Below, one piece after another: positions 5,358 through 42,699 of a DNA stretch of 50,126 nucleotides. Source of the DNA: a phage. The stretch lies in sequence record PZ445405.1, one strand, 5' to 3'. A program made the position numbers and the translations under genes. The notes under the pieces were generated by a model that was not told where the DNA came from, ran no database searches, and was given only the letters and a program-made list of their open reading frames with translations. Position 1 is the stretch's first letter. Every line of letters begins with the position of its first letter.

Positions 5358-5363
5358 CAACAA

Positions 5364-5386
5364 GCCTCCTTCGGGAGGTTTTTTAT
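5364..5386 (+). terminator. Rho-independent terminator
   Basis: CCTCC-ttcg-GGAGG followed by TTTTTTATT. Confidence 0.65.
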
Positions 5387-5439
5387 TAACCTTAACTCTG
5401 TTAGACTTATTAGGTCTATTAACCAATCAGGAGATTAAG

Positions 5440-10569: not shown

Positions 10570-10573
10570 TTGC

Positions 10574-10650
10574 ATAGCACTTTTTGCCAAAGATCTTATT
10601 CAACTTTGCTGTATAGTTACCTCATCGAAACGAAATGAGAGATTAAAGAA
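10574..10650 (+). promoter_or_regulatory. Promoter cassette, T-rich-centre variant (ATAGCACTTTTTGCCAAA, 22 bp, TATAGT 10612-10617, leader CATCGAAACG)
   Basis: Same geometry as the canonical cassette; drives the lipoprotein ORF. Confidence 0.55.
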
Positions 10651-11037
10651 ATGAAAGCAATCATCGCAATTATGGCAACCTTGTTACTCGCTGGCTGTAA
10701 CTCAGATAAGGTAAAGACACTTAACGTTGATCTGGCATCAAACGAATGCAAGAACATCGTATACAACGCGACGGTTAACAATGAATCATTTACTCAGCTT
10801 TCATTCAAACACCCAGAGCTCAAAGATGCCGTTATGTACGTGGCGCACATTGAATGCACGAAATCTGTTAACAATTTTACCCGCGGCGTTGTAGTTGAGC
10901 ACAACACAACATTGGCAAAAGTATCAAAGCCTAGTGACGCTTCAATCGCGATGGTTTATACTAATATCTACAATTTAGAAGGTTTCGCTAAGGAAGTTGG
11001 CGAGAAGCTGGCTTACTCACGCGTTGTTATGAAATAA
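10651..11037 (+). CDS. Lipoprotein (moron inside the tail operon)
   Basis: Signal peptide with lipobox LLAGC (MKAIIAIMATLLLAGCNSD); own promoter cassette and flanking terminator. Confidence 0.6.
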   Translation: MKAIIAIMATLLLAGCNSDKVKTLNVDLASNECKNIVYNATVNNESFTQLSFKHPELKDAVMYVAHIECTKSVNNFTRGVVVEHNTTLAKVSKPSDASIAMVYTNIYNLEGFAKEVGEKLAYSRVVMK

Positions 11038-11054
11038 ATAGAGGATAAAACGAG

Positions 11055-11369
11055 ATGGCAAAGTTCAAACTTTCACTGGCGGCACTGCCAGACTTCAAGC
11101 TCCCAGTAAAATTTAAGCTGGCTAACGACCAGGATGTAGAGGTTATCTTTACAGTTAAGCATAAGAAGACTTCTGAGCTTCAGGAATTGCTTAACAAGGA
11201 AGGCTTGAGCACCAAAGAACTCATTATGGCAATTGCTTCTGATTGGGATCTGGAAGAGGAATACAACGAGGATAACGTTAATGAGTTCTCCGACCTGTTC
11301 CCGGCTTCAACTGTTGCGCTGACCACCGCTTATATGCAAGCACTTGCTGGGCAGCGAGTAAAAAACTAA
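11055..11369 (+). CDS. Tail assembly chaperone (lambda gpG-like)
   Basis: Acidic 104-aa ORF immediately upstream of the tape measure gene, ending at a slippery heptamer. Confidence 0.7.
   Translation: MAKFKLSLAALPDFKLPVKFKLANDQDVEVIFTVKHKKTSELQELLNKEGLSTKELIMAIASDWDLEEEYNEDNVNEFSDLFPASTVALTTAYMQALAGQRVKN
11360..11366 (+). other. Programmed -1 ribosomal frameshift slippery site A_AAA_AAC
   Basis: Heptamer sits 1 codon before the G stop (TAA 11367-11369); the -1 frame continues open to 11689. Confidence 0.6.
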
Positions 11370-14872: not shown

Positions 14873-14896
14873 AGCCCCATTAGGGGCTTTTTTTTA
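14873..14896 (+). terminator. Rho-independent terminator
   Basis: AGCCCC-atta-GGGGCT followed by T8 and TTATTGGAGAAA. Confidence 0.65.
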
Positions 14897-14908
14897 TTGG
14901 AGAAATAT

Positions 14909-15664
14909 ATGTTAAGTCCAAAGTTTGAAAATCAGTTGCAAAGCCTTTTCCCTGGCGAAATTGTGACACTAATCCAGGTTGATGGCACCTCCTTTGGCGG
15001 TCTCGTTTATTCGTTCCATAATGAGAACATTTCATACACGCCAGAGGAAATCATGCTGGCCCAGATGAATGGCGATCCACTACCAGAGAAGACAATCACA
15101 TTTCGCGGAGAGGAATATGGACCTCGCCCATTCGGAATCTCTGGTATCAATATGACCTCTGACGGAAAGGCCAACAAAGTGACGCTAACAGTATCAAACG
15201 TAGACCAGCGAATTAGCGCATTGATTCGAACATACAATGGACTGGTTAGGGCTAAGGTTACTATCTGGATTACTACGCGAGACAACATCAACGAAGATGG
15301 AAGCATTGCTGATGGGGACTATCGCAGGTTCGTTTACTTCATTGAGAGACCAAAGCAGGTTGATTACAAAACGGCATCATTTGAGCTTAGCTCACCTATG
15401 GATATGGATGGAATTTACATTCCTGCGAGACTTGTTCAGTCTGTTTGCTATTTTGCCTCCAGGGGATGGTATCGAAGTGGTAATGGGTGTTCATATGCTG
15501 GTAACAGATACTTTAACAAGGATGATGAGCCGGTGGCAGACCCTTCATTAGACTTCTGTGCGGGAACTGTTAACAGCTGCAAGCTTAGATTCGGTGAGAA
15601 TAATCAGTTGGATTTTGGCGGTTGCGCGGCGGCAAGCCTTCAGGCAAAAGCGAATCAAAGCTAA
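14909..15664 (+). CDS. Minor tail protein (lambda gpL-like) with C-terminal Cys cluster
   Basis: C-terminal cysteines (CYFASRGW..GCSYAG..FCAGTVNSC) as in the lambda L iron-sulfur motif; position. Confidence 0.75.
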   Translation: MLSPKFENQLQSLFPGEIVTLIQVDGTSFGGLVYSFHNENISYTPEEIMLAQMNGDPLPEKTITFRGEEYGPRPFGISGINMTSDGKANKVTLTVSNVDQRISALIRTYNGLVRAKVTIWITTRDNINEDGSIADGDYRRFVYFIERPKQVDYKTASFELSSPMDMDGIYIPARLVQSVCYFASRGWYRSGNGCSYAGNRYFNKDDEPVADPSLDFCAGTVNSCKLRFGENNQLDFGGCAAASLQAKANQS

Positions 15665-15738
15665 ATAGCACGAATTGCTAAACACCAACGCGACGGATGG
15701 CGTATAGTTACTTCATCGAAACGAGAGGAGATAAATAA
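15665..15738 (+). promoter_or_regulatory. Canonical promoter cassette (box 15665-15682, TATAGT 15703-15708, leader CATCGAAACGAGAGGAG)
   Basis: Near-identical to the cassette at 537-611; TTGCTA to TATAGT spacing 22 bp. Confidence 0.6.
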
Positions 15739-16056
15739 ATGAAAGCTAAATTTATTGCAAAATCGGAATGGTACACTGGTGAGTACGAATTTACCACTGG
15801 AGAGGATTACGAACTTAGTCACCAAGGCGGCAACTTCTATTCAACAATAGACAATAACGGTCTTTTGGCTTACTTTGAAAATGGTCGATACTATGAATTT
15901 GAGATCCTCAAAAATGAATCAAAAGAGAAGGAGATGACTTACAGAATGAATGGGGATGTGGTTACTGAATCATTCTTTTATGACAGGCTAATGGAGGCTG
16001 AGGCACTTAAGTCCAGAGGGGTTTCTGTATTTATAGATTTTGAGGTTAGTTTTTAA
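15739..16056 (+). CDS. Hypothetical small acidic Tyr/Gly-rich protein (cassette-driven moron)
   Basis: Motif TGEYEFTTGEDYEL similar to ORFs at 612 and 34351. Confidence 0.45.
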   Translation: MKAKFIAKSEWYTGEYEFTTGEDYELSHQGGNFYSTIDNNGLLAYFENGRYYEFEILKNESKEKEMTYRMNGDVVTESFFYDRLMEAEALKSRGVSVFIDFEVSF

Positions 16057-16079
16057 TAATCGAAATTGGTGTTAAACTA

Positions 16080-16106
16080 GGTCAATCGATAGATTGGCCT
16101 TTTTTA
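16080..16106 (+). terminator. Rho-independent terminator
   Basis: GGTCAATC-gata-GATTGGCC followed by TTTTTTATTGGAGAAAA. Confidence 0.55.
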
Positions 16107-16117
16107 TTGGAGAAAAC

Positions 16118-21010: not shown

Positions 21011-21944
21011 AATACATATCAGGAAGGTAAGGAAGAGGAATGCCAAGTGTAACGTCTGGCCTATTTCCAATTTCATATCTAACTATCCTTGTGCCCGTGC
21101 CGCTCCTTACATTACCACCAGACATTACCACACCTTTGTTTCTTAGCTCCTTGTATGCAGGTATTGCTCTTGTGTTAAACCCACACCTAAGTATTGGAAA
21201 GTATGAGTTTCCTATACTCTGGTTTGAGCTCGTCAAGGTCCTGAACCCAGAAACAACAAGAGGCCTTGTTAATGTTGAAAAAGTACACTGATTGTTAGAG
21301 TTGAATATGTTTATGCCAGGCCCTGGGGTTGGAGCAACCTGCTGAAATATTATTAGATCAAGAGTTACGCTACCAGGGGTATCTCCAGTATCTTCTGTAT
21401 TTATATTCGTGCAATATAGAGTTCTGTCACCATCAAACTCAACTGAGACACCTGAGTTATTCCACTTCCCAAAAGGTATTCCAGCTATTGGCATTGTATA
21501 GCTGTTTGTGAATGATACGGTTGCTGAAAATTTGCAAGTAAGAAGCCTATCCCTTGTTGTTATAGAGGCGAAATCAGTACTATCAGCAACGTATATACCT
21601 TGCCCAGTTGACGCTCTCAATACTTCCACTACAGTTCCAGAGAACTGCGTAATACGGTCATTATAAGCATTCTCCCCACCAATAGTTATCGTCCCCTGAG
21701 TATTGGTTGCTGAAAATCCATTTATATAATAAATCTCAACCCCCCTATCAAGTTCAAAGCTATAGGCACCATTTCTTGGTAGTAAGAATTTTGATGAGCC
21801 ATCGCTACCAGTTATTGGGAATGTCTTTGTAAATCCTCCGCTAGAAACGTTGAAGTTACCAGCAAAAGACAACCCCCTCATCCCTGAGGTTATCATCATT
21901 GGGTTTCTACCATCATTCAGATCTATATATATACCTTGGGCCAT
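21009..21944 (-). CDS. Hypothetical 311-aa Gly/Ser/Thr/Asn-rich protein; candidate receptor-binding or tail accessory protein
   Basis: ATG overlaps the TAA of the upstream lipoprotein gene (TAATG); SD AAGGAG; location just downstream of J. Confidence 0.5.
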   Translation of the reverse strand: MAQGIYIDLNDGRNPMMITSGMRGLSFAGNFNVSSGGFTKTFPITGSDGSSKFLLPRNGAYSFELDRGVEIYYINGFSATNTQGTITIGGENAYNDRITQFSGTVVEVLRASTGQGIYVADSTDFASITTRDRLLTCKFSATVSFTNSYTMPIAGIPFGKWNNSGVSVEFDGDRTLYCTNINTEDTGDTPGSVTLDLIIFQQVAPTPGPGINIFNSNNQCTFSTLTRPLVVSGFRTLTSSNQSIGNSYFPILRCGFNTRAIPAYKELRNKGVVMSGGNVRSGTGTRIVRYEIGNRPDVTLGIPLPYLPDMY

Positions 21945-22174
21945 TAATTCCACTCCTTAGAGCCATGATCACGAACAGATCCGCTAGAGCCTTTAATTCC
22001 ATCGTAACGAACATCAACCTCGCCAGCCGGAACAACTACACCACCCTTCCATTTAGCTACGCATACGCCGTTAGCTTGAGTTGCACACCAACCATCCGGG
22101 CGAGGACCCGATGAACAACCTACTGTCATGATTACTACTGCGGCGATGATTGCTGATTTGATTAAGTTAGTCAT
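21944..22174 (-). CDS. Small lipoprotein (76 aa); candidate superinfection-exclusion lipoprotein (Llp/Cor-like role)
   Basis: Signal peptide ending in the lipobox-compatible MTVGC; cassette-driven; translationally coupled to the 311-aa ORF. Confidence 0.5.
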
Positions 22175-22258
22175 TTTGTATTCCTTAGTAAGTTCGTTTC
22201 GTTTCGATGGAGTAATAGTATCGCATCCTTGCGATCAGTGTTTAGCAATTCGTGCTAT
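22175..22258 (-). promoter_or_regulatory. Canonical promoter cassette on the minus strand (box at 22241-22258)
   Basis: Reverse complement reads ATAGCACGAATTGCTAAA, 22 bp, TACTAT, CATCGAAACGAAACG; the box also encodes the C-terminus (NSTNC) and stop of the upstream gene. Confidence 0.55.
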
Positions 22259-22931
22259 TCGCCAAGAATACAGCTCTTGCAAATCCACGAGGTGTAAGGC
22301 TGCGAATTACCTTTGTCTTCTTGCTCTTGCCGCCAAGTTTCTTGTATTGGTCAGAGAAACCACCATCAACCTCCACAGGAATCGCCTCAGGCCATCTAAA
22401 CCCATTACCAGACCAAATACATGTCTTTTTAGGGTATGCATCTCTTGGCTTTATTAGGTCTCTAAAAAACGGGTGTAAATCATCTTCCGGCAAATATCCA
22501 CCGTACTCATATGGATGGAAAGTGTTATCAGGTTTTCGCCAAAGTGATGAAAGTACGCTGATTGGGTTTTCAATCATGTATGGCACCTCGTACTTTTCAG
22601 CCAGGTTGAAAGCAAACTTGCAAGTCTCTGCCGCCTCAATTTGAAAATTAGGATTGGCAAGACGCTTACGCTCGAAGTGTCTTGAGCCGCTCACCGCTAA
22701 ATCCGTACAAGGCGGGAATGCTAAAATGAAATCAGGCTTCACATCGAAATCGAAGTCAGCATCTATCCAGGTGTTAACGTAGGTAATATTCTCATGCTCA
22801 ACTTTTGCGTTTAAGTCACCGTAGCTCCCGTGGTCTGACTCATCAAAGTTGAAGCAGTAGCAAGTGTGACCAGCTTCAGCCCAATCTTTTACCGCCAGAC
22901 CAGAACCATCAAATAAAGACCAGATAACCAT
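22242..22931 (-). CDS. Short DNA C5-cytosine methyltransferase-like protein (229 aa)
   Basis: Motif I-like LFDGSG, catalytic motif IV-like FPPC, motif VI-like ENPIS; too short for a canonical C5-methyltransferase. Confidence 0.4.
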   Translation of the reverse strand: MVIWSLFDGSGLAVKDWAEAGHTCYCFNFDESDHGSYGDLNAKVEHENITYVNTWIDADFDFDVKPDFILAFPPCTDLAVSGSRHFERKRLANPNFQIEAAETCKFAFNLAEKYEVPYMIENPISVLSSLWRKPDNTFHPYEYGGYLPEDDLHPFFRDLIKPRDAYPKKTCIWSGNGFRWPEAIPVEVDGGFSDQYKKLGGKSKKTKVIRSLTPRGFARAVFLANSTNC

Positions 22932-23003
22932 ATTAAAACCCCTCTCGTTAAAGTGCGGCGATTATACCGCGCAAAATTTATTGTTCTTTGGCAATTCGTG
23001 CCA
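22932..23003 (-). promoter_or_regulatory. Promoter cassette variant on the minus strand (box TGGCAcgaatTGCCA, 22 bp, TATAAT, leader AACGAGAGGGG)
   Basis: Perfect palindrome variant of the box; -10 TATAAT (rc of 22961-22966); upstream stop codon abuts the box. Confidence 0.55.
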
Positions 23004-23005
23004 TA

Positions 23006-23212
23006 TCAGATTTTAAATTCTTCATAGTTGTTGTTGATAATCAGGCAGTGATAACGGATCAATTCAATGCGTCTCTCTCCGTGATTTAAAGCATTCTCGG
23101 CGCATCTTTCCTGATACTCAGCCCAAGCCTTATCTCGGTCTATTGTTGGCTCCGTGGCGATTCTGAGGCCCTTTGGTGTGGTGATTACTACCTGATAGAG
23201 TAAGTTGCTCAT
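23006..23212 (-). CDS. Hypothetical protein (68 aa)
   Basis: ORF in a minus-strand operon downstream of the Rha-like gene. Confidence 0.4.
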   Translation of the reverse strand: MSNLLYQVVITTPKGLRIATEPTIDRDKAWAEYQERCAENALNHGERRIELIRYHCLIINNNYEEFKI

Positions 23213-23494: not shown

Positions 23495-24136
23495 TTATAC
23501 CACCTTATTTTCGATTTGCATTACGTTATTAACTGCCAGCATAACATTTCGATTCTGCTGCTGCGTTGTAACTACAAAAGACTCCATCTTAATCCGATCT
23601 AAATCTTTTTCCGCACCCTCTCGGGTTAATTGCATTACCCGGTCATGGTTATATTTTTCCAATTCCGTCAACCCCACCTTATCTTCAAGCTTCCAGCAGT
23701 ACACCTGCATTTCACTATATATTTTAGAGTTTACAGCCATTTGGCCTTGCATGCTATGAATGTGGTTATCTTTCTCTTTAATGATTTTCTCGTAATGTGC
23801 CACGATGTTTAGATTTCCAACAGCTTCGATCTTTGACTCAAGTTCATGAAGCCTTCGGATTACTTTATGGCGAAGTGCGACGCTGTATCCGGTGATTAGC
23901 GTTTCGGTAAGTTCCTTGTTAAGCAAAATCTCTGATGTATAGCCACGAACGTCAGTAAGTACTTGATAATCATCATGACTCAAATCTGAGTCATCGTTAT
24001 AATGTAACAATTCATCGATCATTTCTTGAGCGTCCCTCACGACGTTGCCATGTCGCTTTCCGGTTAATTCGGCAACTTCCTTTGTGCTCATCATTGCTTT
24101 TGGTTGTTCTTTGTACACTTTAATATTCATTTTCAT
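23495..24136 (-). CDS. Rha-family phage regulatory protein (putative)
   Basis: N-terminal motif STKEVAELTGKRHGNVVRD typical of the Rha domain; start ambiguous (24136, 24130 or 24172). Confidence 0.55.
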   Translation of the reverse strand: MKMNIKVYKEQPKAMMSTKEVAELTGKRHGNVVRDAQEMIDELLHYNDDSDLSHDDYQVLTDVRGYTSEILLNKELTETLITGYSVALRHKVIRRLHELESKIEAVGNLNIVAHYEKIIKEKDNHIHSMQGQMAVNSKIYSEMQVYCWKLEDKVGLTELEKYNHDRVMQLTREGAEKDLDRIKMESFVVTTQQQNRNVMLAVNNVMQIENKVV

Positions 24137-24172
24137 CTCTCTTCTGTTTTTCATGACCCAAATCTGGATCAT

Positions 24173-24276
24173 GATTTGATGTTCGGCCTGAAATTCAGGT
24201 TGGATGACGACACCATTGCCGCCATGCGCCTAAATATAACTAAAGATACCCAGTTGTCTTTAGCAATTAGTGCTAT
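24173..24276 (-). promoter_or_regulatory. Promoter cassette on the minus strand (box at 24259-24276, centre CTAAT; -10 TATATT)
   Basis: Reverse complement ATAGCACTAATTGCTAAA followed 22 bp later by TATATT; long leader with a possible 18-codon upstream ORF. Confidence 0.45.
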
Positions 24277-24299
24277 TTATCGCCAATTCCACCATAAAT

Positions 24300-24640
24300 C
24301 ACAGTTACACGTAACCGATGTAACTCGATGTATACAATCTCGTCCGCGGAAAATGGTATACGCCCTGTTACGCCTGGTTACGCTATAGTTACATTAAAAT
24401 ATCTATATATATCAACCTTTTACTCTTATTATTATTATTATATATATTACTATGTATATCATGTAACTACTTCTATGGAGTGTTCCGGTTGTAATTTTAA
24501 TATCATGTGGATTTATACAGTATCTAACAATCAGCATAGCAACGCACCCTCCTTGAAGAATGGTATACACGATATACACGCTGGTTACATTGAGCTATAG
24601 CTGGTCTGGGGTGCCAAAAAGCGTAACTAGTGGCAGTGCC
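24300..24640. repeat. Iteron plus microsatellite control region A (paralog of region B at 42866-43200)
   Basis: CGATGTA x2 at 10-bp spacing (24316, 24326), GTTACGC x2 at 10-bp spacing (24367, 24377), (TA)n 24394-24402, (TTA)5 24426-24440, palindrome AGCTATAGCT 24593-24602; same motif order as region B. Confidence 0.7.
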
Positions 24641-24961: not shown

Positions 24962-25927
24962 ATGAGCTTTAAAGTTTTTACGCGAGAGGAACTAAGCAAC
25001 GAGGCTTATCATAACGAGACTGAGCATATATCAGGCAGTTCAATTGTCGAGATTATCCAGGGCTCTCCGGCTAAGTGGAAGTTTAAACAGCGTAATAATG
25101 ATAGCAAGGCTCTTAAGTTCGGAACGCTGAGTCACACATACATCCTAGAGGGTGACGTGTTTGATAAAGAATACCTGAGAGCAACTGACCTTGACTCAAT
25201 TGAAGGATTGATTACCAGCCAAACCGGTTTGGCTGCGGCACTTAAGAAAGTTGGTGTGGCTGGCACGTCAGGGAAGGGGTATGGCGAGCTTGTAGAGATG
25301 ATGTATCGCTCTGGTGAGGATTGGCCTGTTAAATGGCTAATTGAGCAGAAGGAGAGCGCTCAGGCGCTTGTGGAGGGTAAGGAGTTAGTTAGCGCAGCGG
25401 ACTACGACAAAGTGGTGGCGATGCGTGAGGTTCTTTGCAATATTCCGGCATACGATAAGATTGTTAATAGTGAGACGGCGCAGAAGGAGTTATCAATCTT
25501 CGGTGAGATTCTAGGCGTTGGCGTTAAGATTCGAATCGACCATGTTGACGTTATTGATGGAGTCGTTCGGATCACAGACTATAAAACGACAGCGGACGCA
25601 AGCCCTGAGGGATTTGGCAAATCGGCATTCTCGCACGGGTACCTTGCAAAAATGTCGCTTCAGCGCGATCTGTTTGTGAAGGCATTCAACGAGAAGCGAA
25701 AGGTTGTTGTGGGATTGTTAGCACAGGAGAAGGTAGAGCCATACTTACCAATGCTTTACACCTTGACGGACGAGCAGTTACGAATTGGTAGGTTGCAGTA
25801 TCTTGAGGCGTTGGCCACTTATAAGAAGTGCAAGGAGCTAGATATCTGGCCGGGGTACTCGAATGGGATTACAGAGCAAGAGCTACTAGTTCCTGAGTGG
25901 GCACTGAAACAATACAAAGAAATATAA
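24962..25927 (+). CDS. PD-(D/E)XK-family nuclease, putative recombination exonuclease
   Basis: Motifs IDHVDVIDG and ITDYKT (D..D.K core); genomic context with Erf and SSB. Confidence 0.5.
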   Translation: MSFKVFTREELSNEAYHNETEHISGSSIVEIIQGSPAKWKFKQRNNDSKALKFGTLSHTYILEGDVFDKEYLRATDLDSIEGLITSQTGLAAALKKVGVAGTSGKGYGELVEMMYRSGEDWPVKWLIEQKESAQALVEGKELVSAADYDKVVAMREVLCNIPAYDKIVNSETAQKELSIFGEILGVGVKIRIDHVDVIDGVVRITDYKTTADASPEGFGKSAFSHGYLAKMSLQRDLFVKAFNEKRKVVVGLLAQEKVEPYLPMLYTLTDEQLRIGRLQYLEALATYKKCKELDIWPGYSNGITEQELLVPEWALKQYKEI

Positions 25928-26002
25928 ATAGCACGAATTGCTAAAGACAAAATTAACGAGTGGGGTATGATTGCCCCATCAACAACGAACGAGGTTAAAA
26001 TT
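25928..26002 (+). promoter_or_regulatory. Canonical promoter cassette (box 25928-25945, TATGAT 25966-25971, leader CATCAACAACGAACGAGG)
   Basis: Box overlaps the stop of the upstream gene; 22-bp spacing conserved. Confidence 0.55.
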
Positions 26003-26077
26003 ATGAATCTTCACCCATTTACATATATCCACATTACTGCTTGGATCGGTTTGTTCATTTACTTATTCAATCGATAA
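26003..26077 (+). CDS. Possible 24-codon hydrophobic leader peptide (MNLHPFTYIHITAWIGLFIYLFNR)
   Basis: Short ORF between the cassette and the Erf gene; its stop overlaps the Erf SD. Confidence 0.2.
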   Translation: MNLHPFTYIHITAWIGLFIYLFNR

Positions 26078-26088
26078 GGATTTTAAAG

Positions 26089-26739
26089 ATGCAAATTTCA
26101 GAATCATTTAAGTCAATTTTAAGCGCTCTTCACACTGCTAAGTCGATGTTTGCTAAAGCAGAGAGGTCACAGCAAAACACACACCTTAAGAACAGGTACG
26201 CTAAATTAGAAGATGTTTTAGCTGCTGTTGAGCCAGGACTTGATGAGTGCGGATTAGTTATGTTCCAAAGCGTAATTGACGATGAGTCAACTAACAGATT
26301 AAAGGTTGAGACAAAAATATTCCATGCCGAATCTGGAGAGTGGGTTAGCTTCTTAATGATCGTCCCAATCAGTAAGAATGATGCGCAGGGTTACGGCTCA
26401 GCTTTAACATACGCTCGACGTTACGGAATAACGGCAGCTTTAGGCCTTAGCCAGGCAGATGATGATGGTAATCTCGCAGCGAAAGGCGTTAAAGACTTTA
26501 AGCGTGAACTTGAGAAGTGCAATACTCTTGATGAACTACGTAACGTCTGGAAAGAAGCAAAGCAGTCACTTGACGCGGCAGGTTGGAAGGTTTTCGAACC
26601 TCACATTATCGAACGCAAGGCAGAGATTGAGGCAAACGCGATGACTGGCTTCAACCCAGCAACACCAAAGAAAGTCGCAGAAAAAAGTAGTCATGAAGAA
26701 AAGATTGAAGTAGAATCACAACAAATCGAAACATTCTAA
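26089..26739 (+). CDS. Erf-family single-strand annealing protein
   Basis: Motifs LKNRYAKLEDVL and GYGSALTYARRYGITAALGL characteristic of the ERF superfamily. Confidence 0.75.
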   Translation: MQISESFKSILSALHTAKSMFAKAERSQQNTHLKNRYAKLEDVLAAVEPGLDECGLVMFQSVIDDESTNRLKVETKIFHAESGEWVSFLMIVPISKNDAQGYGSALTYARRYGITAALGLSQADDDGNLAAKGVKDFKRELEKCNTLDELRNVWKEAKQSLDAAGWKVFEPHIIERKAEIEANAMTGFNPATPKKVAEKSSHEEKIEVESQQIETF

Positions 26740-26780
26740 TTTAAGAGGGGCTTCGGCCCCAGACAACAGAGGAATAAGGT

Positions 26781-27188
26781 ATGCACGTAATTACTGGTAA
26801 GATTAGTCGCGCTCCGTTCACTAAAGAAGGCGCTAACGCTAACGGTAACTGGAAAATGTTCGCAGTTGATTTGAGTGAGCGATACAAGGATAAAGATGGG
26901 AAAACTCAGTACACCAACTACCGCGCTGTGCTTTTCGCTAAAGAGTCGATGCTAGATTGGTACAATGAGGCATTTCAAGAGGGTAAAGTTGTTAGCATTA
27001 GCGCAGAAAGCCTGGCTGTTGATGTTCGGGATAAAGATGGCAAGACTTACGTTACTGTCAATATGAATAATCCTAGGCTTGAGTTTAGTCAGCGTGGCGA
27101 TTCACAACCACAGAAAAATAATAGACAGCAGCAACAGCAGCATCCTCAGCAACAGCAGCAACAGTTCAATGACGACATTCCATTCTGA
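26781..27188 (+). CDS. ssb: Single-stranded DNA-binding protein
   Basis: OB-fold-like N-terminal domain, Gln-rich linker and canonical acidic C-terminal tail DDIPF. Confidence 0.85.
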   Translation: MHVITGKISRAPFTKEGANANGNWKMFAVDLSERYKDKDGKTQYTNYRAVLFAKESMLDWYNEAFQEGKVVSISAESLAVDVRDKDGKTYVTVNMNNPRLEFSQRGDSQPQKNNRQQQQQHPQQQQQQFNDDIPF

Positions 27189-29748: not shown

Positions 29749-29771
29749 AATTTCAACTCCTATTTTTATTG

Positions 29772-29789
29772 ATAGCACGAATTGCTAAA
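29772..29789 (+). promoter_or_regulatory. Orphan palindromic box ATAGCACGAATTGCTAAA without downstream -10 or leader
   Basis: Perfect box lying between two minus-strand genes, 24 nt from the tail-fibre start codon. Confidence 0.4.
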
Positions 29790-29842: not shown

Positions 29843-30759
29843 AGTAGTTCGCTTGCCTTATAGATTCTCTTTCTTATTCCTGACTTGAAAAAATTATCAT
29901 CATTTGGCATTACCACATCAATATTGCGATCGTCAGCAACGGCGAGTAAATCAAGATCGTGGCGAGTACAAGCGATGCGTAACTTGTATTTTCTAAGCGC
30001 GTAAGCAACCATTTCCATGTTGTAGATGGAGTAGCAAACAAGCACGCAGCGGTTGCCAGTAGCAATGTGAACACGATAGCCGTCAATGAGATTATCGACC
30101 AGATAAGCGTAATCATCATCCTTAAAGGAACCAATAACAGAAACAGATTGGCGAGTATAATCTTTTGCAGCATAACTAACACCTCCATATTCATTGATAA
30201 ACATTACATTACACATTTCTTCTGATATGCCGTCACTATAAGCCATAAAGCACGGCACTGCGTGTATTAGTTCGCCTGATTTTGTTCTGCCAACATCAAA
30301 GCCAAACTCGCTATAGATTCCCTCGTATGTACTGAGCGGAGTTGATTCTACTCTTTCAGTCCTTTCCATTATCTCTAAGCATCTTTCGTGGTCAATCTGA
30401 GCGCCCATTTTGTAGATCTGGGTTCTTGATGCTTGCTTGTTTGCTTTAACTATAACCTCAATTGGTGTTAAGTTCAGCCAGTCACCAAGCAAATTTACTG
30501 AATCGGCGAAGGACGATCCAGTGCACTTCATGACCCATCCTATACCGGAGTCACTCCCGCATTTCGAACAAACTGCCGCGCCATTTCCTTTTTCACTGCC
30601 TATTTCGTCGGTAAATCTGAATCTGTCAGTGCCAAAGCAGTATGGGCATGGTCCGTGCTTCTTACTTAGGTGTCTATCATTCCAACCAAGTTCCTTTGCA
30701 TAAAATGATTTCCACAATCCGGCCATCTTAGGTATAACTTCATTCTTATCGTAATTCAT
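29836..30759 (-). CDS. DNA primase-like protein with zinc-ribbon
   Basis: Cys motifs CPYCFG..CSKCGSD in the N-terminal region; ATGA coupling with the upstream HNH gene; replication gene context. Confidence 0.5.
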   Translation of the reverse strand: MNYDKNEVIPKMAGLWKSFYAKELGWNDRHLSKKHGPCPYCFGTDRFRFTDEIGSEKGNGAAVCSKCGSDSGIGWVMKCTGSSFADSVNLLGDWLNLTPIEVIVKANKQASRTQIYKMGAQIDHERCLEIMERTERVESTPLSTYEGIYSEFGFDVGRTKSGELIHAVPCFMAYSDGISEEMCNVMFINEYGGVSYAAKDYTRQSVSVIGSFKDDDYAYLVDNLIDGYRVHIATGNRCVLVCYSIYNMEMVAYALRKYKLRIACTRHDLDLLAVADDRNIDVVMPNDDNFFKSGIRKRIYKASELLN

Positions 30760-31235
30760 TTGCTTAACCCGTGATTTTCGTGAAAGTTGTATTTTCTCTC
30801 TGCTTCAATTCTTACTTTATACGCCTGCTCTGGAGTATCGAAGTTCCCAAGGTGTAACTGCTTACCGTCAACCTTGATGTGAGCCTTAAATTTTCCGTGA
30901 TTTAGCTTTGCCACTCCACAATAACCAGTTGTTGATAAAACGCTAAGCCTGCAATTTCTTGAGTTACCTTGATTTGTTGTTACTCTTAGGTTTTCTATTC
31001 TGTTATCTAATTTGTTATGGTTTATATGATCAATGTAGTCGCCATTTTGAAGTTCTCCATTAAACATCTCCCACACAACTCTATGTACGTAAGTCCTAAA
31101 GCCATTAACAGACACTTTGTAATAGCCAGATGTAGATAGTGAGTTGCACTCATCGCCAACCTTAACACGTCTTGCAGTGCTAATCTTCCAATGCAATTTG
31201 CCATCTACATAGTAAAAATAATCATGCCAGTTCAT
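30756..31235 (-). CDS. HNH homing endonuclease (HNH + AP2-like), copy 2
   Basis: Motifs DHINHNKLDNRIENLRVTT and paralogy to the other two copies. Confidence 0.8.
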   Translation of the reverse strand: MNWHDYFYYVDGKLHWKISTARRVKVGDECNSLSTSGYYKVSVNGFRTYVHRVVWEMFNGELQNGDYIDHINHNKLDNRIENLRVTTNQGNSRNCRLSVLSTTGYCGVAKLNHGKFKAHIKVDGKQLHLGNFDTPEQAYKVRIEAERKYNFHENHGLSK

Positions 31236-31308
31236 TTTCTTCTCTCCAATAAAAAAGGATGTACCGATTATGGCACATCCAATCCTTTAATCTTTAGCTT
31301 TTCGTGCT
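31236..31308 (-). promoter_or_regulatory. Cassette variant upstream of HNH-2 (box AGCACGAAAAGCTAAAG, terminator hairpin, CATAAT, TTTTTTATTGGAGA RBS junction)
   Basis: Box overlaps the C-terminus and stop of the upstream gene; hairpin GGATGT..ACATCC. Confidence 0.45.
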
Positions 31309-31760
31309 GCTTCGTTAGCTGCCTTAATCTTGCGCCACGATCGACACTCTGGCTTGGTGGCCAGTTCAGCCTCAGTTACCACACGCAGCATGTGACGTTT
31401 TTTGCAGCGTAGAGTTAGTGGTTTTCCGTTACCGTCGAATTGCAGGTCTGGTCTACAGAATGTGGCGCGAAAACCTTCTCCGGTTCGTTTGTAGTAGTTG
31501 TGCGACAGTTGAGCGCCACGTGCAGAAATCATACCACGCTTAAACCACTCTTCTACAGCCTGCGGCGTTACCTTTAACTGCTTTGCGATATTCGCCTTTG
31601 TGCCGAAGAAATCAAGAATCATCTCTAACCTTGCGCGTAACCCAGCCCTTACCTCATCTTTCAAAACGTAGTAACCTGAAGGTCGCTTTCGCTGCTTTTT
31701 ATCTTCAGTGCGGATGGTTCCGTTATTGCCGTTAATGGTTCGCTTGTCAATTGTACTCAT
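31287..31760 (-). CDS. Putative HTH DNA-binding protein (157 aa)
   Basis: HTH-like segment ANIAKQLKVTPQAVEEWFKRGMIS; basic; first gene of an early minus-strand operon. Confidence 0.45.
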   Translation of the reverse strand: MSTIDKRTINGNNGTIRTEDKKQRKRPSGYYVLKDEVRAGLRARLEMILDFFGTKANIAKQLKVTPQAVEEWFKRGMISARGAQLSHNYYKRTGEGFRATFCRPDLQFDGNGKPLTLRCKKRHMLRVVTEAELATKPECRSWRKIKAANEAARKAKD

Positions 31761-31772
31761 TTCATTACCTCG

Positions 31773-31861
31773 ATAGCATTTTTTGTTAAAAGTCATTCTG
31801 ATTTGATGGTAGTATTGTACTCAATTAAACGCTACAAGACAATTTTTATAGGAATTTAGAT
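31773..31861 (+). promoter_or_regulatory. T-rich-centre cassette upstream of the helicase gene (ATAGCATTTTTTGTTAAAAG)
   Basis: Box-like sequence followed at about 21 bp by TAGTAT; ATG at 31862. Confidence 0.4.
31814..31842 (-). promoter_or_regulatory. Sigma70-like promoter on the minus strand (TTGTCT, 17 bp, TACAAT)
   Basis: Canonical 17-bp spacing, divergent from the helicase cassette; would drive the HTH, HNH-2, primase operon. Confidence 0.4.
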
Positions 31862-33856
31862 ATGTTGCCTATCGAGAAACTGGTTGCCAACTTTGATAAA
31901 GAAAGAATTAAACAGATTCAGAAAGACTATCAGTTTGGCGAGATAACCCCTTACGAGTTCCAGTGCGTCACATTTGATGCAATCGGAAAGGCCATTGGAA
32001 AGTACGAGGCACCATTTATCGCGGACCTTTCCGTGTCTGCTGGTAAGACAATCATTCTGGCTATGATTGGTAAGCGCATGGAGCAGCTTGGGCTTCCTTA
32101 TATGGTTCTCTCTCGCCAGTCAGAAATTATCAGTCAGAACTCAGAAGAGCTTCGTAATTTCGGTATCCGTAACAGCGTCTATTGCGCCGGCCTCAACGTT
32201 AAATCGGTTTACTACCCAACCATAGTTGCTAGCGAGGGTACGGCAGCTAACGGCTTGTTTAAGGGTCTTGGTGACTACGTTCCTGCTGTTATAGCTATTG
32301 ATGAGTGTCATATGGTGGACCATATGGATATCGTGGAAGCTGAAGAGAACGAAGAAACATTTGAGCAAATGAGCACAAAGAAAGGCGAGATGGTTTTCAA
32401 GGATGGTGTTAACACTGGATTGATAGGCACAGGGCGAGCGCAGTACACACTAATTATCACTGAGATGAAACGTCGCTGCCGCGAGAAGTACGGTCGTGAG
32501 CTTCGTATATTCGGTCTAACTGGCAGCCCGTATCGTAACAACGATCATATCGTCGTTAGCAACCCAAACATCCGTGGATTTTGGCGCAAGACGGTTATTC
32601 AGGTTCCAACCAATTACCTGGTTGATTTAGGTTTCGTTGTTCCCACAGTTTACGGTGAAGTTGGCGATCTGGGATATGACCTTGCGGAGTTTGCGCCGGA
32701 TGGCAGTGATGGCGTGAAAGACTTTAGCAAGAAAGAAATGGAAGCGATGCAGGAAAAAATTCATCAAAACCAGTCCATGACTCAAAAGATTATGGGTTTT
32801 GTTGTAAAAATACTAGAGACTCGTAACGCCGCATTGGTAACGTGTGCTGGTAAACTTCACTGCGAAGAAGCTGCTGCAGCGCTACCAGATGGATACCCTT
32901 ACGCCATCATCACAGACTCTACTGGTGAGAGGAAGCGCAGAGAGATTCTTGACGATTGCCAGACAGGGAAGTATAAAATAATATTCCAGATTGGTTGTCT
33001 AACTACGGGGGTGTCGGTTCCACCGTGGGATACAAGCGTTATACTTAGAAAGATCGGCAGCCTTACACTACTGATCCAGCTACTTGGTAGGGGTATGCGA
33101 ATACTCAAGAAGAAACATAAAGAACTTGGAATGGTTAAGGACGATCATTTGGTTCTTGATTTCGCTGGTGCGCTTGATGACATGGCGGAGCTTTACTTTG
33201 ACCCAATTATTGAAGAGATTCAGGCTGAGAAGTTTAAATCATCAAGAAAAGGTGGCGATGAGGTTCGCCAGTGTCCGCAATGTGGTTATGAGAACTCTCC
33301 GTTCGCTCGCAGGTGTGGTAACAAGATTGATGGAAAGCGTTGTGAGCACTTTTTCAGCTTTACGGTTTGTGAAGATATTACTGACCCGCAAACAAAGGCT
33401 GTTATAAAGAAAGGCTGCGGTACTCGCAATGACATAGCAGCAAAGGTTTGCAGGGAATGCGGAGAGATGCTTAAAGACCCAAATGCTAACCTGACTGGCA
33501 AGATGTATCGTCGTGGTGATTACCTTCGTGTTTATGATTTTCAAGTTGGGTTAAGTAAGAATCAGACAGGCATTGTAGTTAAGTACAACATCATGGCGCA
33601 TAACGGAGAGAGGTTTAATGCTTGGGAGTTCTTTAATCCAGAATCAGACCATAGAGTTTGCAGTGTGCTTTGGAAGAACTTCTGCCTTGCTCATATTGAG
33701 AATCGAACTGAGGCCGCGCGAATTGGAAGACTGAAGAATGCCAGAATGATTATGACTAACTTGGATAAGTTCCGTGCGCCAGTTCAGGTTACACACCGAA
33801 GGAATGGCAAAGGAAAGGACGTGATCGCTTTTAAGAATTTTGGAGAATTGCTATGA
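31862..33856 (+). CDS. ATP-dependent DNA helicase (SF2-like) with C-terminal zinc-ribbons
   Basis: Walker A-like SAGKT, DECH box (IAIDECHMVD), C-terminal CPQCGYEN..CGNK and CRECGEM Cys clusters. Confidence 0.7.
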   Translation: MLPIEKLVANFDKERIKQIQKDYQFGEITPYEFQCVTFDAIGKAIGKYEAPFIADLSVSAGKTIILAMIGKRMEQLGLPYMVLSRQSEIISQNSEELRNFGIRNSVYCAGLNVKSVYYPTIVASEGTAANGLFKGLGDYVPAVIAIDECHMVDHMDIVEAEENEETFEQMSTKKGEMVFKDGVNTGLIGTGRAQYTLIITEMKRRCREKYGRELRIFGLTGSPYRNNDHIVVSNPNIRGFWRKTVIQVPTNYLVDLGFVVPTVYGEVGDLGYDLAEFAPDGSDGVKDFSKKEMEAMQEKIHQNQSMTQKIMGFVVKILETRNAALVTCAGKLHCEEAAAALPDGYPYAIITDSTGERKRREILDDCQTGKYKIIFQIGCLTTGVSVPPWDTSVILRKIGSLTLLIQLLGRGMRILKKKHKELGMVKDDHLVLDFAGALDDMAELYFDPIIEEIQAEKFKSSRKGGDEVRQCPQCGYENSPFARRCGNKIDGKRCEHFFSFTVCEDITDPQTKAVIKKGCGTRNDIAAKVCRECGEMLKDPNANLTGKMYRRGDYLRVYDFQVGLSKNQTGIVVKYNIMAHNGERFNAWEFFNPESDHRVCSVLWKNFCLAHIENRTEAARIGRLKNARMIMTNLDKFRAPVQVTHRRNGKGKDVIAFKNFGELL

Positions 33857-34272
33857 ACATAACAGATAAAGAAGATTACATTGAGTTTTACCCGGGCCCG
33901 GTTAAGTATTGCCCTAAAGAGGATGACGAGCAAATCTTTTGCTCTGATTGGGTTAAGTATCATTACCCTCAGATTGTTTACTGGCACACGGTTAATGAAT
34001 CGATGAAGACCATTGGACAGGCAAGAAAAGACCAGGCCAAAGGTTTGCTTAAGGGGGTTTCGGACTGCTTATTCCTGATACCTGAATCACTTCGTGGTAA
34101 ATACCCTTTTGGAGCCATAGAGCTAAAAAGGGCCGGGAAGACGCAGGCGAGTCCAGTCAGCGACGAACAGAAGTCCTTCCTTAAGAGCGTCAGAGAATCG
34201 GGCGGCTTCGGGGCTGTAGCTTACGGACGTGAGGGTTTTCTTGCGGCATTCAAAGAAATGATTTCAAAATAG
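33853..34272 (+). CDS. VRR-NUC domain nuclease (putative)
   Basis: Motif GVSDCLFLIPESLRGKYPFGAIELKR (D..E.K core); ATGA coupling to the helicase gene. Confidence 0.55.
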   Translation: MNITDKEDYIEFYPGPVKYCPKEDDEQIFCSDWVKYHYPQIVYWHTVNESMKTIGQARKDQAKGLLKGVSDCLFLIPESLRGKYPFGAIELKRAGKTQASPVSDEQKSFLKSVRESGGFGAVAYGREGFLAAFKEMISK

Positions 34273-34350
34273 CACGAATTGCTAAAGACGTTTCGGTGAG
34301 TTGGTGTATTATCTATTCATCGAAACGAAACGCACAAAGAGAGAAACAAA
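34269..34350 (+). promoter_or_regulatory. Canonical promoter cassette (box 34269-34286, TATTAT 34307-34312, leader CATCGAAACGAAACG)
   Basis: Box contains the TAG stop of the upstream gene; 22-bp spacing. Confidence 0.55.
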
Positions 34351-34641
34351 ATGGCTACTATCTATACTGGTAAATTCTACGAATCACGCAAAACTGGTTA
34401 TGAGTATGAATTAGTAATAACCCCAGAAGGTTATGTACTTGATGATGGTGAAGGGTACGCATTCGAAGTTAGCCCGACTTACAAAGATGATTTAGAAACT
34501 GTTAAAAACGCATTTGGCGAAAAATTTGATGTTATTGATGATGGTGATGGCTACGCATTCGAAGTTAGCCCAACCTACAAAGATGATTTAGAAACTGTTA
34601 AAAACGCATTTGGCGAAAAAATTGATGAGGTATCAGAGTAA
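34351..34641 (+). CDS. Hypothetical acidic protein with internal 32-aa tandem duplication
   Basis: Two 96-bp direct repeats (34441-34536 and 34537-34632) encoding DDGEGYAFEVSPTYKDDLETVKNAFGEK twice. Confidence 0.5.
   Translation: MATIYTGKFYESRKTGYEYELVITPEGYVLDDGEGYAFEVSPTYKDDLETVKNAFGEKFDVIDDGDGYAFEVSPTYKDDLETVKNAFGEKIDEVSE
34441..34632 (+). repeat. Tandem 96-bp in-frame duplication (2 units, about 93% identical)
   Basis: Direct comparison of the two units shows only about 7 substitutions. Confidence 0.8.
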
Positions 34642-34862
34642 TGGCAATTTTTACACTTGAAAAACAATGGGAAGTTTTCCAGTCGATGGTGGATCAGGAG
34701 TTGCATAAAGCTGGGTATAAACATGAAGGCTGGGATATGGCTTGGTGCCTGGATATGAGCTTTGAAGAAGACTACCTGAATACTGATATCGAAACGTGGC
34801 GCGACCGCATGGTTGCAGACATTGAAGAAATGAAGAAAGATTGCCCGGAGGATTTCTTATGA
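34641..34862 (+). CDS. Hypothetical protein (73 aa)
   Basis: TAATG overlap with the upstream gene. Confidence 0.4.
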   Translation: MAIFTLEKQWEVFQSMVDQELHKAGYKHEGWDMAWCLDMSFEEDYLNTDIETWRDRMVADIEEMKKDCPEDFL

Positions 34863-35050
34863 TTGGAATCTGCGTAAAAACAAATGGACGCTTTACACTG
34901 CTCGAGGATTACGAAATCAACTTTGATTCAGGCGGCGCAATAACAGTAAAAGGAGAAGATGAATTACATTGGTTCCTTAGTTATCAAGGTGATGGCTACT
35001 ACGGTTGCACGGATTGCTACGGAAAAGAAGTTAGCTTCTTAGTAGAATAG
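34859..35050 (+). CDS. Hypothetical protein (63 aa)
   Basis: ATGA overlap with the upstream gene; SD GGAG. Confidence 0.35.
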   Translation: MIGICVKTNGRFTLLEDYEINFDSGGAITVKGEDELHWFLSYQGDGYYGCTDCYGKEVSFLVE

Positions 35051-35120
35051 CACTTTTTGTTAAAACTCAAATCCAGGGATGGATTATATTAAGCACATAA
35101 ACAACGAAGAGGGTTAAGAG
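35047..35120 (+). promoter_or_regulatory. T-rich-centre cassette (ATAGCACTTTTTGTTAAAAC, 22 bp, TATATT 35085-35090)
   Basis: Box overlaps the TAG stop of the upstream gene; leader with SD AAGAGGG. Confidence 0.5.
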
Positions 35121-36959: not shown

Positions 36960-37031
36960 ATAGCACCTTTTGTTAAAACAGTAGCCGCGAAAGCGGCTAT
37001 TATTGTTTTATACAAACGATAGGAGATTGAA
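36960..37031 (+). promoter_or_regulatory. T-rich-centre cassette upstream of HNH-3 (ATAGCACCTTTTGTTAAAAC, hairpin, TATTAT 36998-37003)
   Basis: 22-bp spacing; hairpin AGCCGCG-aaa-GCGGCT in the spacer; SD AGGAG. Confidence 0.5.
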
Positions 37032-37517: not shown

Positions 37518-37602
37518 ATAGCACTTTTTGCCTAACCCATGCCGTAGAAATGCGGCATAATCACCACATCGAAACGAGATTAACTAAACGAGGAAACGCA
37601 AG
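37518..37602 (+). promoter_or_regulatory. T-rich-centre cassette (ATAGCACTTTTTGCCTAAC, hairpin, CATAAT 37556-37561, leader CATCGAAACGAG)
   Basis: 22-bp spacing; hairpin ATGCCG-tagaa-ATGCGGCAT. Confidence 0.5.
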
Positions 37603-40922: not shown

Positions 40923-40996
40923 TATTTCTCTCCGTGCTGATTCTGAGCGGTCATTATATCAACGACCGCTTATAATTCATTATCAATTTTTGCTAT

Positions 40997-42692: not shown

Positions 42693-42699
42693 TCGTTAG

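Follow-up and report, generated by a model that had tools for sequence, protein, structure and literature searches.

At 22241-22260 of a 50,126-nt phage DNA (PZ445405.1; this whole stretch is the window referred to below), the minus strand carries a short dyad-symmetric box at the seam between two genes. The last codons of the upstream gene, 22242-22931, are written within the box, and a promoter-like cassette that leads into the downstream gene begins with it. The product of 22242-22931 gives a weak match to Pfam DNA_methylase, and its orthologue in phage JeanPiccard is annotated as a Dcm-like C5 cytosine methyltransferase; we call it the Dcm-like gene herein. Position 1 of the window aligns with the last base of the large-terminase gene of phage RobRod40 and positions 48566-50126 align with the remainder of the same gene, from which we conclude that the window is the whole, circularly permuted ~50-kb genome of a new Braunvirinae-type phage. 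Megablast searches with the focal region and with both halves of the window returned T1-like siphoviruses only, at ~85-88% identity and with patchy coverage. The best matches were Rtp, RobRod40, the BEK phages, and JeanPiccard, along with ZL19 and Veterinaerplatzvirus isolates, and the taxonomy in the records of these relatives is Drexlerviridae; Braunvirinae. The window phage is an Rtp-like coliphage. Genes in the window were called with a simple coding-potential and Shine-Dalgarno (SD) model, and the blastn comparison set consisted of nine relatives, T1, and three further T145P1 isolates. Coordinates of the features discussed are collected in Table 1.

The minus-strand sequence at 22241-22258, the coordinates named in a first-pass annotation of this DNA, is ATAGCACGAATTGCTAAA, and it belongs to a set of 21-22 copies of AAATAGCACnnnTTGCTAAA in the window. 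Upon searching with ATAGCACNAATTG, we found 15 copies at one mismatch or fewer and 25 copies at two or fewer, compared to 6.4 ± 2.1 in shuffled sequences, none of which (0/100) reached 25. A 20-nt weight matrix (AAATAGCACGAATTGCTAAA) yielded 22 sites at 8 bits or more, where shuffles gave 0-3, and 21 sites at 11 bits or more; one additional T-type copy at 31771-31790 lies beyond the matrix sites. The two arms of the box form a dyad, TAGCA-N5-TGCTA, and the center between them is free (GAA, TAA, TTT, or AAA). In the window, 19 of the 21 boxes are directed at a downstream gene, and in 17 of these 19 the ATG lies 74-87 nt from the start of the box. The relatives carry 15-22 copies per genome, and an exact scan of IMG/VR returned at least 120 stretches with the box, mostly on contigs of 42-53 kb, which is the T1-like size range.

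These boxes are members of a published family of 21-nt direct repeats of T1-like phages. The sections on repeats in the 2024 re-annotation of phage TLS describe 21 copies of aaATAGCACnnnTTGnTAAAA, oriented with transcription and located ~76 nt upstream of start codons, sort them into AAA, TTT, and GAA subgroups, and note the same repeat in T1, Rtp, and Rogue1 (PMC11447400). The window agrees with the TLS repeats in sequence, in its ~20 intergenic, co-directional copies per genome, in the distance to ATG, in the GAA/TTT/AAA subgroups, and in having a T1-like genome. According to the same sections, the TLS authors found only three sigma70-like promoters and left the role of the repeat undecided between a stoperator, an enhancer site, and a UP element (PMC11447400). 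A text search of that paper returned no 'stop codon' and no passage tying the repeats to recombination, and a phased -10 hexamer is absent from its passages on repeats (PMC11447400). In the literature searched, to which the Rtp and T1 genome papers did not belong, the box sequence appears in the TLS paper alone, and two T1-like genome papers give generic promoter prediction only. As far as this literature goes, the repeat itself is known, and what is new is the phased hexamer, the fusion to stop codons, and the role as a junction.

Eighteen boxes in the window have a co-directional upstream gene, and in 16 of them the stop codon of that gene lies inside the box or abuts it. The stop is the TAG inside ATAGCAC at seven boxes (535, 34267, 35045, 44288, 44565, 45861, and 46428) and a TAA built on the two A's just 5′ of the box at six (15663, 25926, 36958, 37516, 40979, and 45439). 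The first-pass annotation had stated that most upstream stops take one of these two forms, and this holds for 13/18. At one further box a TGA lies one base 5′ (22987), and at two the stop falls within TTGCTAA or TTGATAA (22241 and 41411). The last two differ: the box at 31293 is read through entirely, the stop of the regulator gene 31287-31760 following 4 nt further on, and at 10572 the stop lies 33 nt upstream with a terminator between. For family-wide counts we used 11 genomes including T1, in which the stop overlaps the box at 133 of the 161 boxes that have a co-directional upstream gene (9-16 of 11-18 per genome). This confirms that the fusion of stop codon and box is a family-wide trait.

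How the box closes a gene can be read from its three frames. One frame contains TAG, a second contains TAA (TGA in TTGATAA), and the third has no internal stop; genes entering in the third frame put a T before the leading AA to form TAA, so that the extended box closes all three frames. This T is seen only in third-frame copies and is therefore part of the gene, not of the box. The stops found in boxes are distributed 7:7:4 over the frames, with no preference. With all three frames closed, any open reading frame (ORF) joined to the box ends within a few codons, which gives rise to box-encoded tails. The translated ends are ...FLANSTNC-stop for 22242-22931(-) and ...EKARNSTN-stop for 41415-41576(-), in agreement with the first-pass annotation, which had assigned the residues ANSTNC and ARNSTN of these two minus-strand genes to the box. 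When the Dcm-like protein was used as a tblastn query, homologues outside T1-like phages aligned only to residue ~221-226 of 229 among the matches listed, and the STNC tail thus looks box-derived. The regulator gene 31287-31760 presents a related observation: its C terminus, ...EAARKAKD-stop, is read from a degenerate box (31287-31312, minus strand), T1 gp23 lacks this tail, and the same DNA is the predicted promoter box of the next gene.

Boxes are not alone in adjoining stop codons. At co-directional junctions that have no box, 27/48 gaps are 17 nt or shorter, and the stops abut the next SD or ATG at most of them. Since stops abut the next element at box-less junctions too, and since the box closes frames by itself, the fixed junction needs no recombination.

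In most copies the box stands at the 5′ end of a cassette of ~75 nt composed of the box, 22 nt, a TAnnnT hexamer, a conserved leader (CATCGAAACGAGAGG, which includes the SD), and ATG. Among 204 boxes from the 11 genomes, 71.6% have the TAnnnT hexamer at box positions 41-46, and at most 8.3% have it at any other offset from 26 to 60. In every copy inspected, the -10-like hexamer follows TTGCTA by exactly 22 nt. The ATG comes 54-67 nt after the box in 17/19 window copies, with a median of 57 over 182 copies. Folding of the 21 cassettes gave a mean z of -2.1, with 10/21 below -2 and some having T-runs; a stable stem-loop, which either sits after the box and before the -10 or encloses the -10, is found in about half of them, and comparison of the cassettes with Rfam gave no family match. 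Canonical sigma70 sites are not enriched in the window (45, compared to 41 ± 7 in shuffles). Separately, the leader CATCGAAACGAGAGGAG, ~8-25 nt after the phased hexamer (15706-15725, for instance), is conserved in most cassettes beyond the needs of an SD and could be an initial-transcribed or translation-enhancing element.

If transcription is assumed to start ~7 nt after the hexamer, the box would span about -52 to -33 and its dyad would be centered near -42, as for class II activators. A dyad in this position, taken together with a TTGCTA that is 5 bp too far upstream for a sigma70 -35, suggests an activator-type or otherwise non-canonical promoter, and we consider it most likely that the cassette is such a promoter, read by host RNA polymerase. 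Several familiar elements were compared with the box and rejected. TTGCTA is unlike a normal -35, as it lies 22 nt from the hexamer in every inspected copy and nothing is conserved 17 nt after it. A sigma54 promoter (GG-N10-GC, TGGCAC-N5-TTGC, without a -10) is ruled out because the box, (A/G)GCAC-N3-TTGC, has N8 and is thus 2 bp short, because most copies have AG and not GG, and because a phased TAnnnT follows. UP elements are A/T-rich, lie at about -57 to -38, and follow nnAAAWWTWTTTTnnnAAAnnn; by inspection the box has a GC-containing core (GCAC...TTGC), and only its flanking A-runs resemble this consensus. The stoperators of mycobacteriophage L5 lie within transcription units, have no fixed relation to promoters, and are bound by the prophage repressor, and the fixed phase of the box to -10 and ATG speaks against them.

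The box might be recognized by RNA polymerase itself or by a separate factor, for which a host protein and the conserved Cro/cI-like regulator of the phage are candidates. The regulator (31287-31760) shares 52% identity with T1 gp23, a protein compared to P22 C2 in the T1 record, and a sequence search against solved structures gave only a marginal match to the helix-turn-helix (HTH) of P22 Cro (E = 0.97). When it is aligned with T1 gp23, the HTH proves moderately conserved, which cannot tie the regulator to the box. The gene is preceded by a sigma70-like site that has no box, TTGTCT-17-TACAAT, at 31842-31814(-). In the intergenic region 31761-31861, the box-like copy at 31771-31790(+) overlaps this site face to face, in the manner of lambda PR/PRM, a geometry that suggests autoregulation of the regulator. 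As for host proteins, the Lrp consensus YAGHAWATTWTDCTR, found in literature that includes Lrp work in Vibrio vulnificus, agrees with the box arms by inspection at 11/15 (GAA type) to 13/15 (TTT type) positions, and the center of the box is mostly not A/T-rich. The orphan box at 29770 has an equivalent in 10/10 relatives including T1 (at 33760 in genome L001, 28464 in L002, and 34900 in T1, L010) and has a bidirectional terminator after it. On the minus strand, this box is located just downstream of a TACAAT and ~20 nt before the tail-fiber ATG, where it could be an operator on this late gene and not a promoter element.

To see where genes have come and gone among the relatives, we compared individual junctions at the sequence level. 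In BEK3, GGAAAAG is followed by a box, the promoter and the Dcm-like gene ending in TTTTTGGCG, and then by a second box and ACTGATCGCAAGG. The same site in 2004V has the same flanks as BEK3, with GGAAAAG leading into one hybrid box and directly on to ACTGATCGCAAGG, and the two high-scoring segment pairs (HSPs) overlap by 19 nt. The HNH gene 37032-37517, which has a box on each side in the window, is replaced in six relatives by a single hybrid box, with the crossover inside TAAATAGCAC and an overlap of 14-16 nt. Compared to RobRod40, homology ends at the box at 44288 and returns at the box at 45439, with unrelated genes between. At the site of the box at 34267, phage Msk has an extra small gene between two near-identical 75-nt cassettes where the window has one. 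Gene presence and absence bounded by boxes is thus found in relatives, as would be expected if the first-pass annotation was right to propose exchange at the box. The box at 24259 is the right-hand limit of a 2-kb block missing from Rtp and T145P1.

The origin of a box-encoded tail can be followed among four T145P1 isolates that are 98-99% identical. Isolates L011 and L013 have the order gene A (...EKAKNINGEHK-stop), gene B (...AINSTNR-stop, an end that lies in the box), box, and isolate L005 has gene A, now ending in ...EKARNSTNC-stop, directly on the box; 41415-41576 in the window is arranged as in L005. This difference implies that an insertion or deletion (indel) at the box edge created the box-encoded tail. 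Cassettes also appear to have moved as wholes. Those at 535, 15663, and 46428 share 13-15 of 20 bases of an otherwise variable spacer (P for 13 or more = 2.5e-4 per pair), which is expected in ~0.06 of 231 pairs and therefore argues that whole cassettes were copied to distant sites. Not every box arrived by exchange with another box, however. At the 15663 site nothing but TAA-GGAGAAATAAATG is present in three relatives, and in Rtp a box and an HNH gene occupy it; judged from its sequence, the unit 15663-16109 is a classical moron insertion between tail genes and not a box-box exchange. Three HNH_3 genes of the window (64-540, 30756-31235, and 37032-37517) each adjoin a box, and the HNH genes of relatives are found at other junctions.

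We then counted the ends of homology. Of 434 internal HSP ends between the window and the nine relatives, 13.6% fall in a box ± 5 nt, intervals that make up 1.26% of the window. Indel and replacement events of 100 nt or more gave 143 endpoint clusters: boxes hold 19 of them and other parts of a cassette 17, while 59 fall at gene boundaries that have no box and 48 within genes. Junctions with a box serve as event endpoints more often (19/21) than those without (30/52; Fisher p = 0.007). After de-duplication, the events whose two ends lie at different gene boundaries comprise nine box-box, nine mixed, and four box-less ones, against a share of only 29% boxed junctions. An all-against-all comparison of clean indels over 14 genomes gave 44 insert families, 13 with an end at a box and 11 with an end at the SD/ATG end of a cassette. 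Many small-gene indels are located at box-less boundaries of the ATGA type with 6-30 nt of microhomology (41820/41995, 42199/42615, and the ATGATT junction of T145P1). Exchange at the box is partly supported by these data: boxes are real and preferred cassette boundaries, the focal Dcm-like gene being a box-to-box cassette itself, and they are one among several kinds of junction.

Taken together, the box is probably best explained as the 5′ block of a promoter-like cassette that closes reading frames and also provides one junction for the gain, loss, and swap of genes. In a packed genome, each gene would end where the next unit has its first functional base. Where that base belongs to a box, the box would end whatever ORF came to be joined to it, giving both the stop fusion and the box-encoded tails. 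The cassettes are the main dispersed homology, and the phage has a recombination module at 24962-27188(+) that encodes a RecE-like exonuclease, an Erf-type annealing protein, and SSB (homology to Rtp47-49), so the cassettes may serve as junctions for promoter-plus-gene units. The module could plausibly catalyze exchange over short homology. Units of promoter plus gene would be lost, gained, or swapped at cassettes, as proposed for the promoter-early stem-loop (PeSL) cassettes of T4-like phages, and this would be one route among several; many other events would run through SD/ATG microhomology at box-less boundaries or through insertion of homing endonucleases.

A number of observations weigh against this explanation. 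Boxes cluster in accessory regions, and within those regions the excess of endpoints at boxes is weaker (16/16 compared to 16/22, p = 0.03). Twenty of the 44 clean indel families (45%) touch no cassette, and among four recent indels of the T145P1 isolates only two do: one of these lies at a box edge and the other where a cassette ends in SD/ATG, and the remaining two are at a box-less boundary and within the tail-fiber gene. Several box-started inserts face a partner genome with no box and so were not placed by box-box exchange. Two of the cleanest box cases contain HNH homing endonuclease genes, which are mobile in their own right. The relatives share ancestry and are not independent, hence counts of genomes overstate counts of events. 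A box of 20 nt is short for homologous recombination, and endpoints at conserved islands are also expected if intact transcription units are selected after random illegitimate recombination. For the promoter itself, the searched T1-like phage literature has no transcription-start or promoter-activity data for any copy, and the -42 position depends on the assumed start.

The first-pass annotation had reasoned from the fixed junction to recombination at the box and had called the process modular moron shuffling, to be refuted by breakpoints away from boxes. Presence and absence of genes bounded by boxes was indeed found; the fusion itself, in contrast, is explained without recombination. Breakpoints off boxes do occur in relatives, which goes part of the way towards that refutation, with 20 of 44 families touching no cassette and 11 ending at SD/ATG. 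The unit 15663-16109 is moron-like, and several box-started units, this one among them, stand at sites where relatives have no box and so cannot have been placed by box-box exchange.

Compaction and selection without any recombinational role for the box could produce much the same picture, and we regard this as possible, if somewhat unlikely. Here the box would be a promoter element only, spare DNA would be deleted under the constraints of headful packaging, and breakpoints would pile up at boxes since only products with whole transcription units survive random illegitimate recombination. The short gaps at box-less junctions, with stops abutting the next SD or ATG, fit this account, as do the 7:7:4 use of stop frames, which is compatible with no preference, the 45% of clean indels without a cassette, many with 6-30 nt of ATG/SD microhomology, and the box-started units inserted where the partner genome has no box. 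It does less well with the crossovers inside the box that left hybrid boxes and 14-19 nt overlaps (Dcm-like and HNH cases), with the extra Msk gene between near-identical 75-nt cassettes, and with the unconstrained spacer shared by three distant cassettes. The share of box-box events also weighs against it, at 9/22 compared to ~8% expected from junction frequencies. These products are as expected of repeat-mediated exchange, though none of them excludes selection.

Traffic of homing endonucleases is, in our judgment, an improbable general cause. Free-standing HNH genes with their own box promoter would home into intergenic sites, and break repair would co-convert the flanks and leave local mosaicism. 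This would suit the three HNH_3 genes that adjoin boxes and the HNH genes of Rtp, JeanPiccard, RobRod40, and ZL19 at other junctions, some of them directly after a box. Yet there is no endonuclease gene in the Dcm-like case, the 44288-45439 module, the Msk small gene, or the T145P1 indel, and some HNH inserts have no box (RobRod40 10611-11096, for example). That the box is no promoter element but a stoperator-like roadblock, or an RNA/DNA hairpin at the 3′ ends of upstream messages, placed at stop codons to terminate or insulate upstream expression, is very improbable: the arms can pair (UAGCA/UGCUA), no gene follows the orphan at 29770, which on the other strand comes right after a TACAAT, and stoperators, enhancer sites, and UP elements are raised in the TLS sections on repeats (PMC11447400), but the fixed 22-nt phase to TAnnnT and the fixed SD/ATG distance in ~72% of 204 copies are promoter features, the 5-bp stem is weak and broken without compensation in several copies (TTGATA and TTGTTA), and Rfam gave no match.

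A stronger form of the favored explanation, in which the box acts family-wide as a selected three-in-one junction adaptor that closes frames, supplies half of an activator-dependent promoter, and offers homology for cassette exchange, is a tentative proposal that we think unlikely as it stands. Were it true, any ORF in any frame could be captured beside a box and would still be terminated and insulated, and the NSTNC, NSTN, and regulator AARKAK tails would be by-products of capture, since tolerated or domesticated. The narrower explanation, of a frame-closing promoter-like cassette that is also one junction for gene exchange, has consequences of its own. The fixed architecture from box to -10 amounts to a concrete promoter model, open to testing, that would cover most of the family's transcription units, and it points to the regulator. 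The junction data would carry the PeSL idea, that regulatory cassettes are hinges at which genes are gained and lost, beyond T4-like myoviruses to a siphovirus family unrelated to them. Box tails account for odd conserved C termini in annotated proteins. T1-like phages are common laboratory and fermentation contaminants as well as phage-therapy candidates, and in practice boxes may be safe insertion points for engineering them and may aid the annotation of gene ends.

Table 1. Boxes, associated genes, and a second junction element in the window.
Feature	Coordinates	Strand	Remarks
Box	535-554	+	TAG of HNH gene 64-540 inside box; predicted to drive 612-992
Terminator tail and SD (GGGGCTTTTTTATTGGAGAAA)	1023-1045, 14883-14905, 16093-16115		
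Box, TTT subtype	10572-10591	+	Only unfused copy: upstream stop 33 nt away, terminator between
Box and moron-like unit	15663-16109	+	Box 15663-15682, TATAGT, leader, gene 15739-16056 (phrog_14592), hairpin and T-run
Box named in the first-pass annotation (GAATAGCACGAATTGCTAAA)	22241-22260	-	Encodes NSTNC and TAA stop of 22242-22931; TACTAT -10-like hexamer 22215-22220; downstream gene 21944-22174(-)
Dcm-like C5-methyltransferase gene, 229 aa	22242-22931	-	Between boxes 22987 and 22241; box-encoded tail
Box (ATATGGCACGAATTGCCAAA)	22987-23006	-	Variant with symmetric change in both arms; TATAAT 22961-22966; predicted promoter element of Dcm-like gene; gene 23006-23212 ends (TGA) 1 nt before box
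Box	24259-24278	-	Edge of divergent intergenic region; predicted to drive Rha-like gene 23495-24172
Box	25926-25945	+	Overlapped by TAA of RecE-like exonuclease gene 24962-25927; inserts here in relatives
Orphan box	29770-29789	+	Between two minus-strand genes (tail fiber, primase); no plus-strand gene downstream
Degenerate box (AAGCAGCACGAAAAGCTAAA)	31293-31312	-	Inside 3′ end of regulator gene; encodes ...AARKAK in the frame without box-internal stop; CATAAT at canonical spacing within terminator-like hairpin; predicted to drive HNH gene 30756-31235
Cro/cI-type HTH regulator gene (homologue of T1 gp23, Rtp52; phrog_2856)	31287-31760	-	Pfam P22_Cro below threshold
T-type box-like copy (ATAGCATTTTTTGTTAAA)	31771-31790	+	Divergent regulator/helicase region; 71 nt before helicase ATG
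Box	34267-34286	+	TAG of 33853-34272 inside box
Box, TTT subtype	35045-35064	+	TAG inside; gene 34859-35050 and this cassette missing as a unit from 4 relatives
Box, HNH gene 37032-37517, box	36958-37535	+	Boxes 36958-36977 and 37516-37535
Box, AAA subtype	40979-40998	-	Overlapped by TAA of gene 40997-41347; 340-353-nt insert at 5′ edge in relatives
Box (AAATAGCACTAATTGATAAA)	41411-41430	-	Encodes NSTN and TGA stop of 41415-41576; terminator-like hairpin between box and -10
53-aa gene (phrog_4548)	41415-41576	-	C terminus ARNSTN-stop box-encoded
Box, TTT subtype	42675-42694	-	Edge of second divergent region; predicted to drive 42438-42620
Box	44288-44307	+	TAG inside; left edge of the module that is swapped in RobRod40
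Box (CGATAGCAC...)	44565-44584	+	TAG inside; 2004V orthologue without box, ends one codon earlier
Box	45439-45458	+	TAA overlaps; terminator-like hairpin between box and -10; right limit of swapped module
Box, TAA subtype	45861-45880	+	TAG inside; hairpin encloses -10
Box	46428-46447	+	TAG inside; inserts of relatives at SD/ATG end of cassette (46505-46508)

Other features of the genome were noted along the way. As a second conserved type of junction, the terminator tail with SD (GGGGCTTTTTTATTGGAGAAA) occurs three times in the structural region, directly 5′ of start codons. The two long divergent intergenic regions, 24398-24627 and 42974-43201, which may hold early promoters or an origin, have in common an ATT/TAT-rich block and a 62-nt block (73% identical); some of their sequence is also found at the ends of the Rtp and RobRod40 genomes. 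The small gene 34351-34641 contains a 96-nt perfect-phase tandem duplication (34433-34624, 93% identical). Gene 5440-6873 (477 aa) has collagen-like Gly-X-Y repeats at 5850-6450 (GGT CCT CAG type, with many 9/18-nt periods); its orthologue in RobRod40 is annotated as a tail fiber protein, and the genes at 4068-6873 are missing from most relatives. A single tRNA-Arg (anticodon TCT) lies at 47382-47459(+), and related T1-like phages are alike in this. Lastly, the host labels of two database records, MG065688.1 ('Campylobacter phage A110b') and PP134917.1 ('Pseudomonas phage PsgS01F'), look doubtful: both are ordinary Rtp-like coliphage genomes that match most of the window at ~86% identity.

Three known systems offer a comparison with the cassette. 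Class II activator-dependent promoters include those with lambda cI at PRM, CRP or FNR at -41.5, and Mu Mor or C at -43.5; the cassette would resemble them in having a dyad at about -42 over the -35 region, a good -10, and no -35, a likeness that depends on the assumed start site. Morons of lambdoid phages, as Juhala and colleagues in 2000 and Hendrix and colleagues are said to have described them, are promoter-gene-terminator units between genes that are adjacent in relatives. The unit 15663-16109 has this form: its promoter cassette, single gene, and terminator stand between two tail genes that adjoin each other in three relatives. Unlike morons, however, most box-led genes have no terminator of their own and stand in operon-like runs, and all share one promoter box.

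The closest parallel is with the PeSL cassettes of the T4-like phages RB49/phi1, PST, and nt-1 (PMC2839356, PMC4122927). In the sections on their layout, PeSL cassettes are described as an upstream stop codon, promoter elements, a stem-loop between these elements or over the -10, SD, and ATG; they are dispersed in plastic regions, and a gene found between two cassettes in one phage can correspond to a single chimeric cassette in a relative (PMC2839356, PMC4122927). Modular shuffling by recombination between cassettes was proposed on this basis, and promoter and terminator activity as well as mini-circles were shown experimentally (PMC2839356, PMC4122927). The T1-like cassette likewise extends from the upstream stop, which overlaps the box in 16/18, to SD and ATG, is likewise scattered over plastic regions, and likewise appears as two flanking cassettes in one genome and one chimeric cassette in another, as for the Dcm-like gene in BEK3 and 2004V and for the HNH gene 37032-37517 and six relatives. 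The promoters differ, as PeSL has a consensus sigma70 -35/-10 at 16-18 nt with an AT-rich upstream region, whereas the T1-like cassette has a dyad box 22 nt from the -10 and no consensus -35 at 16-18 nt, a few copies having a weak AAGACA at 16-17 nt. Unlike in PeSL, a strong stem-loop is present in only about half of the T1-like cassettes, and the likeness on the T1-like side is one of sequence. PeSL cassettes belong to the hyperplastic regions of T4-like myoviruses, and the T1-like cassette to a ~50-kb siphovirus of the Drexlerviridae. Since these are different virus families, the T1-like cassette is an analogue of PeSL and not a member of it.

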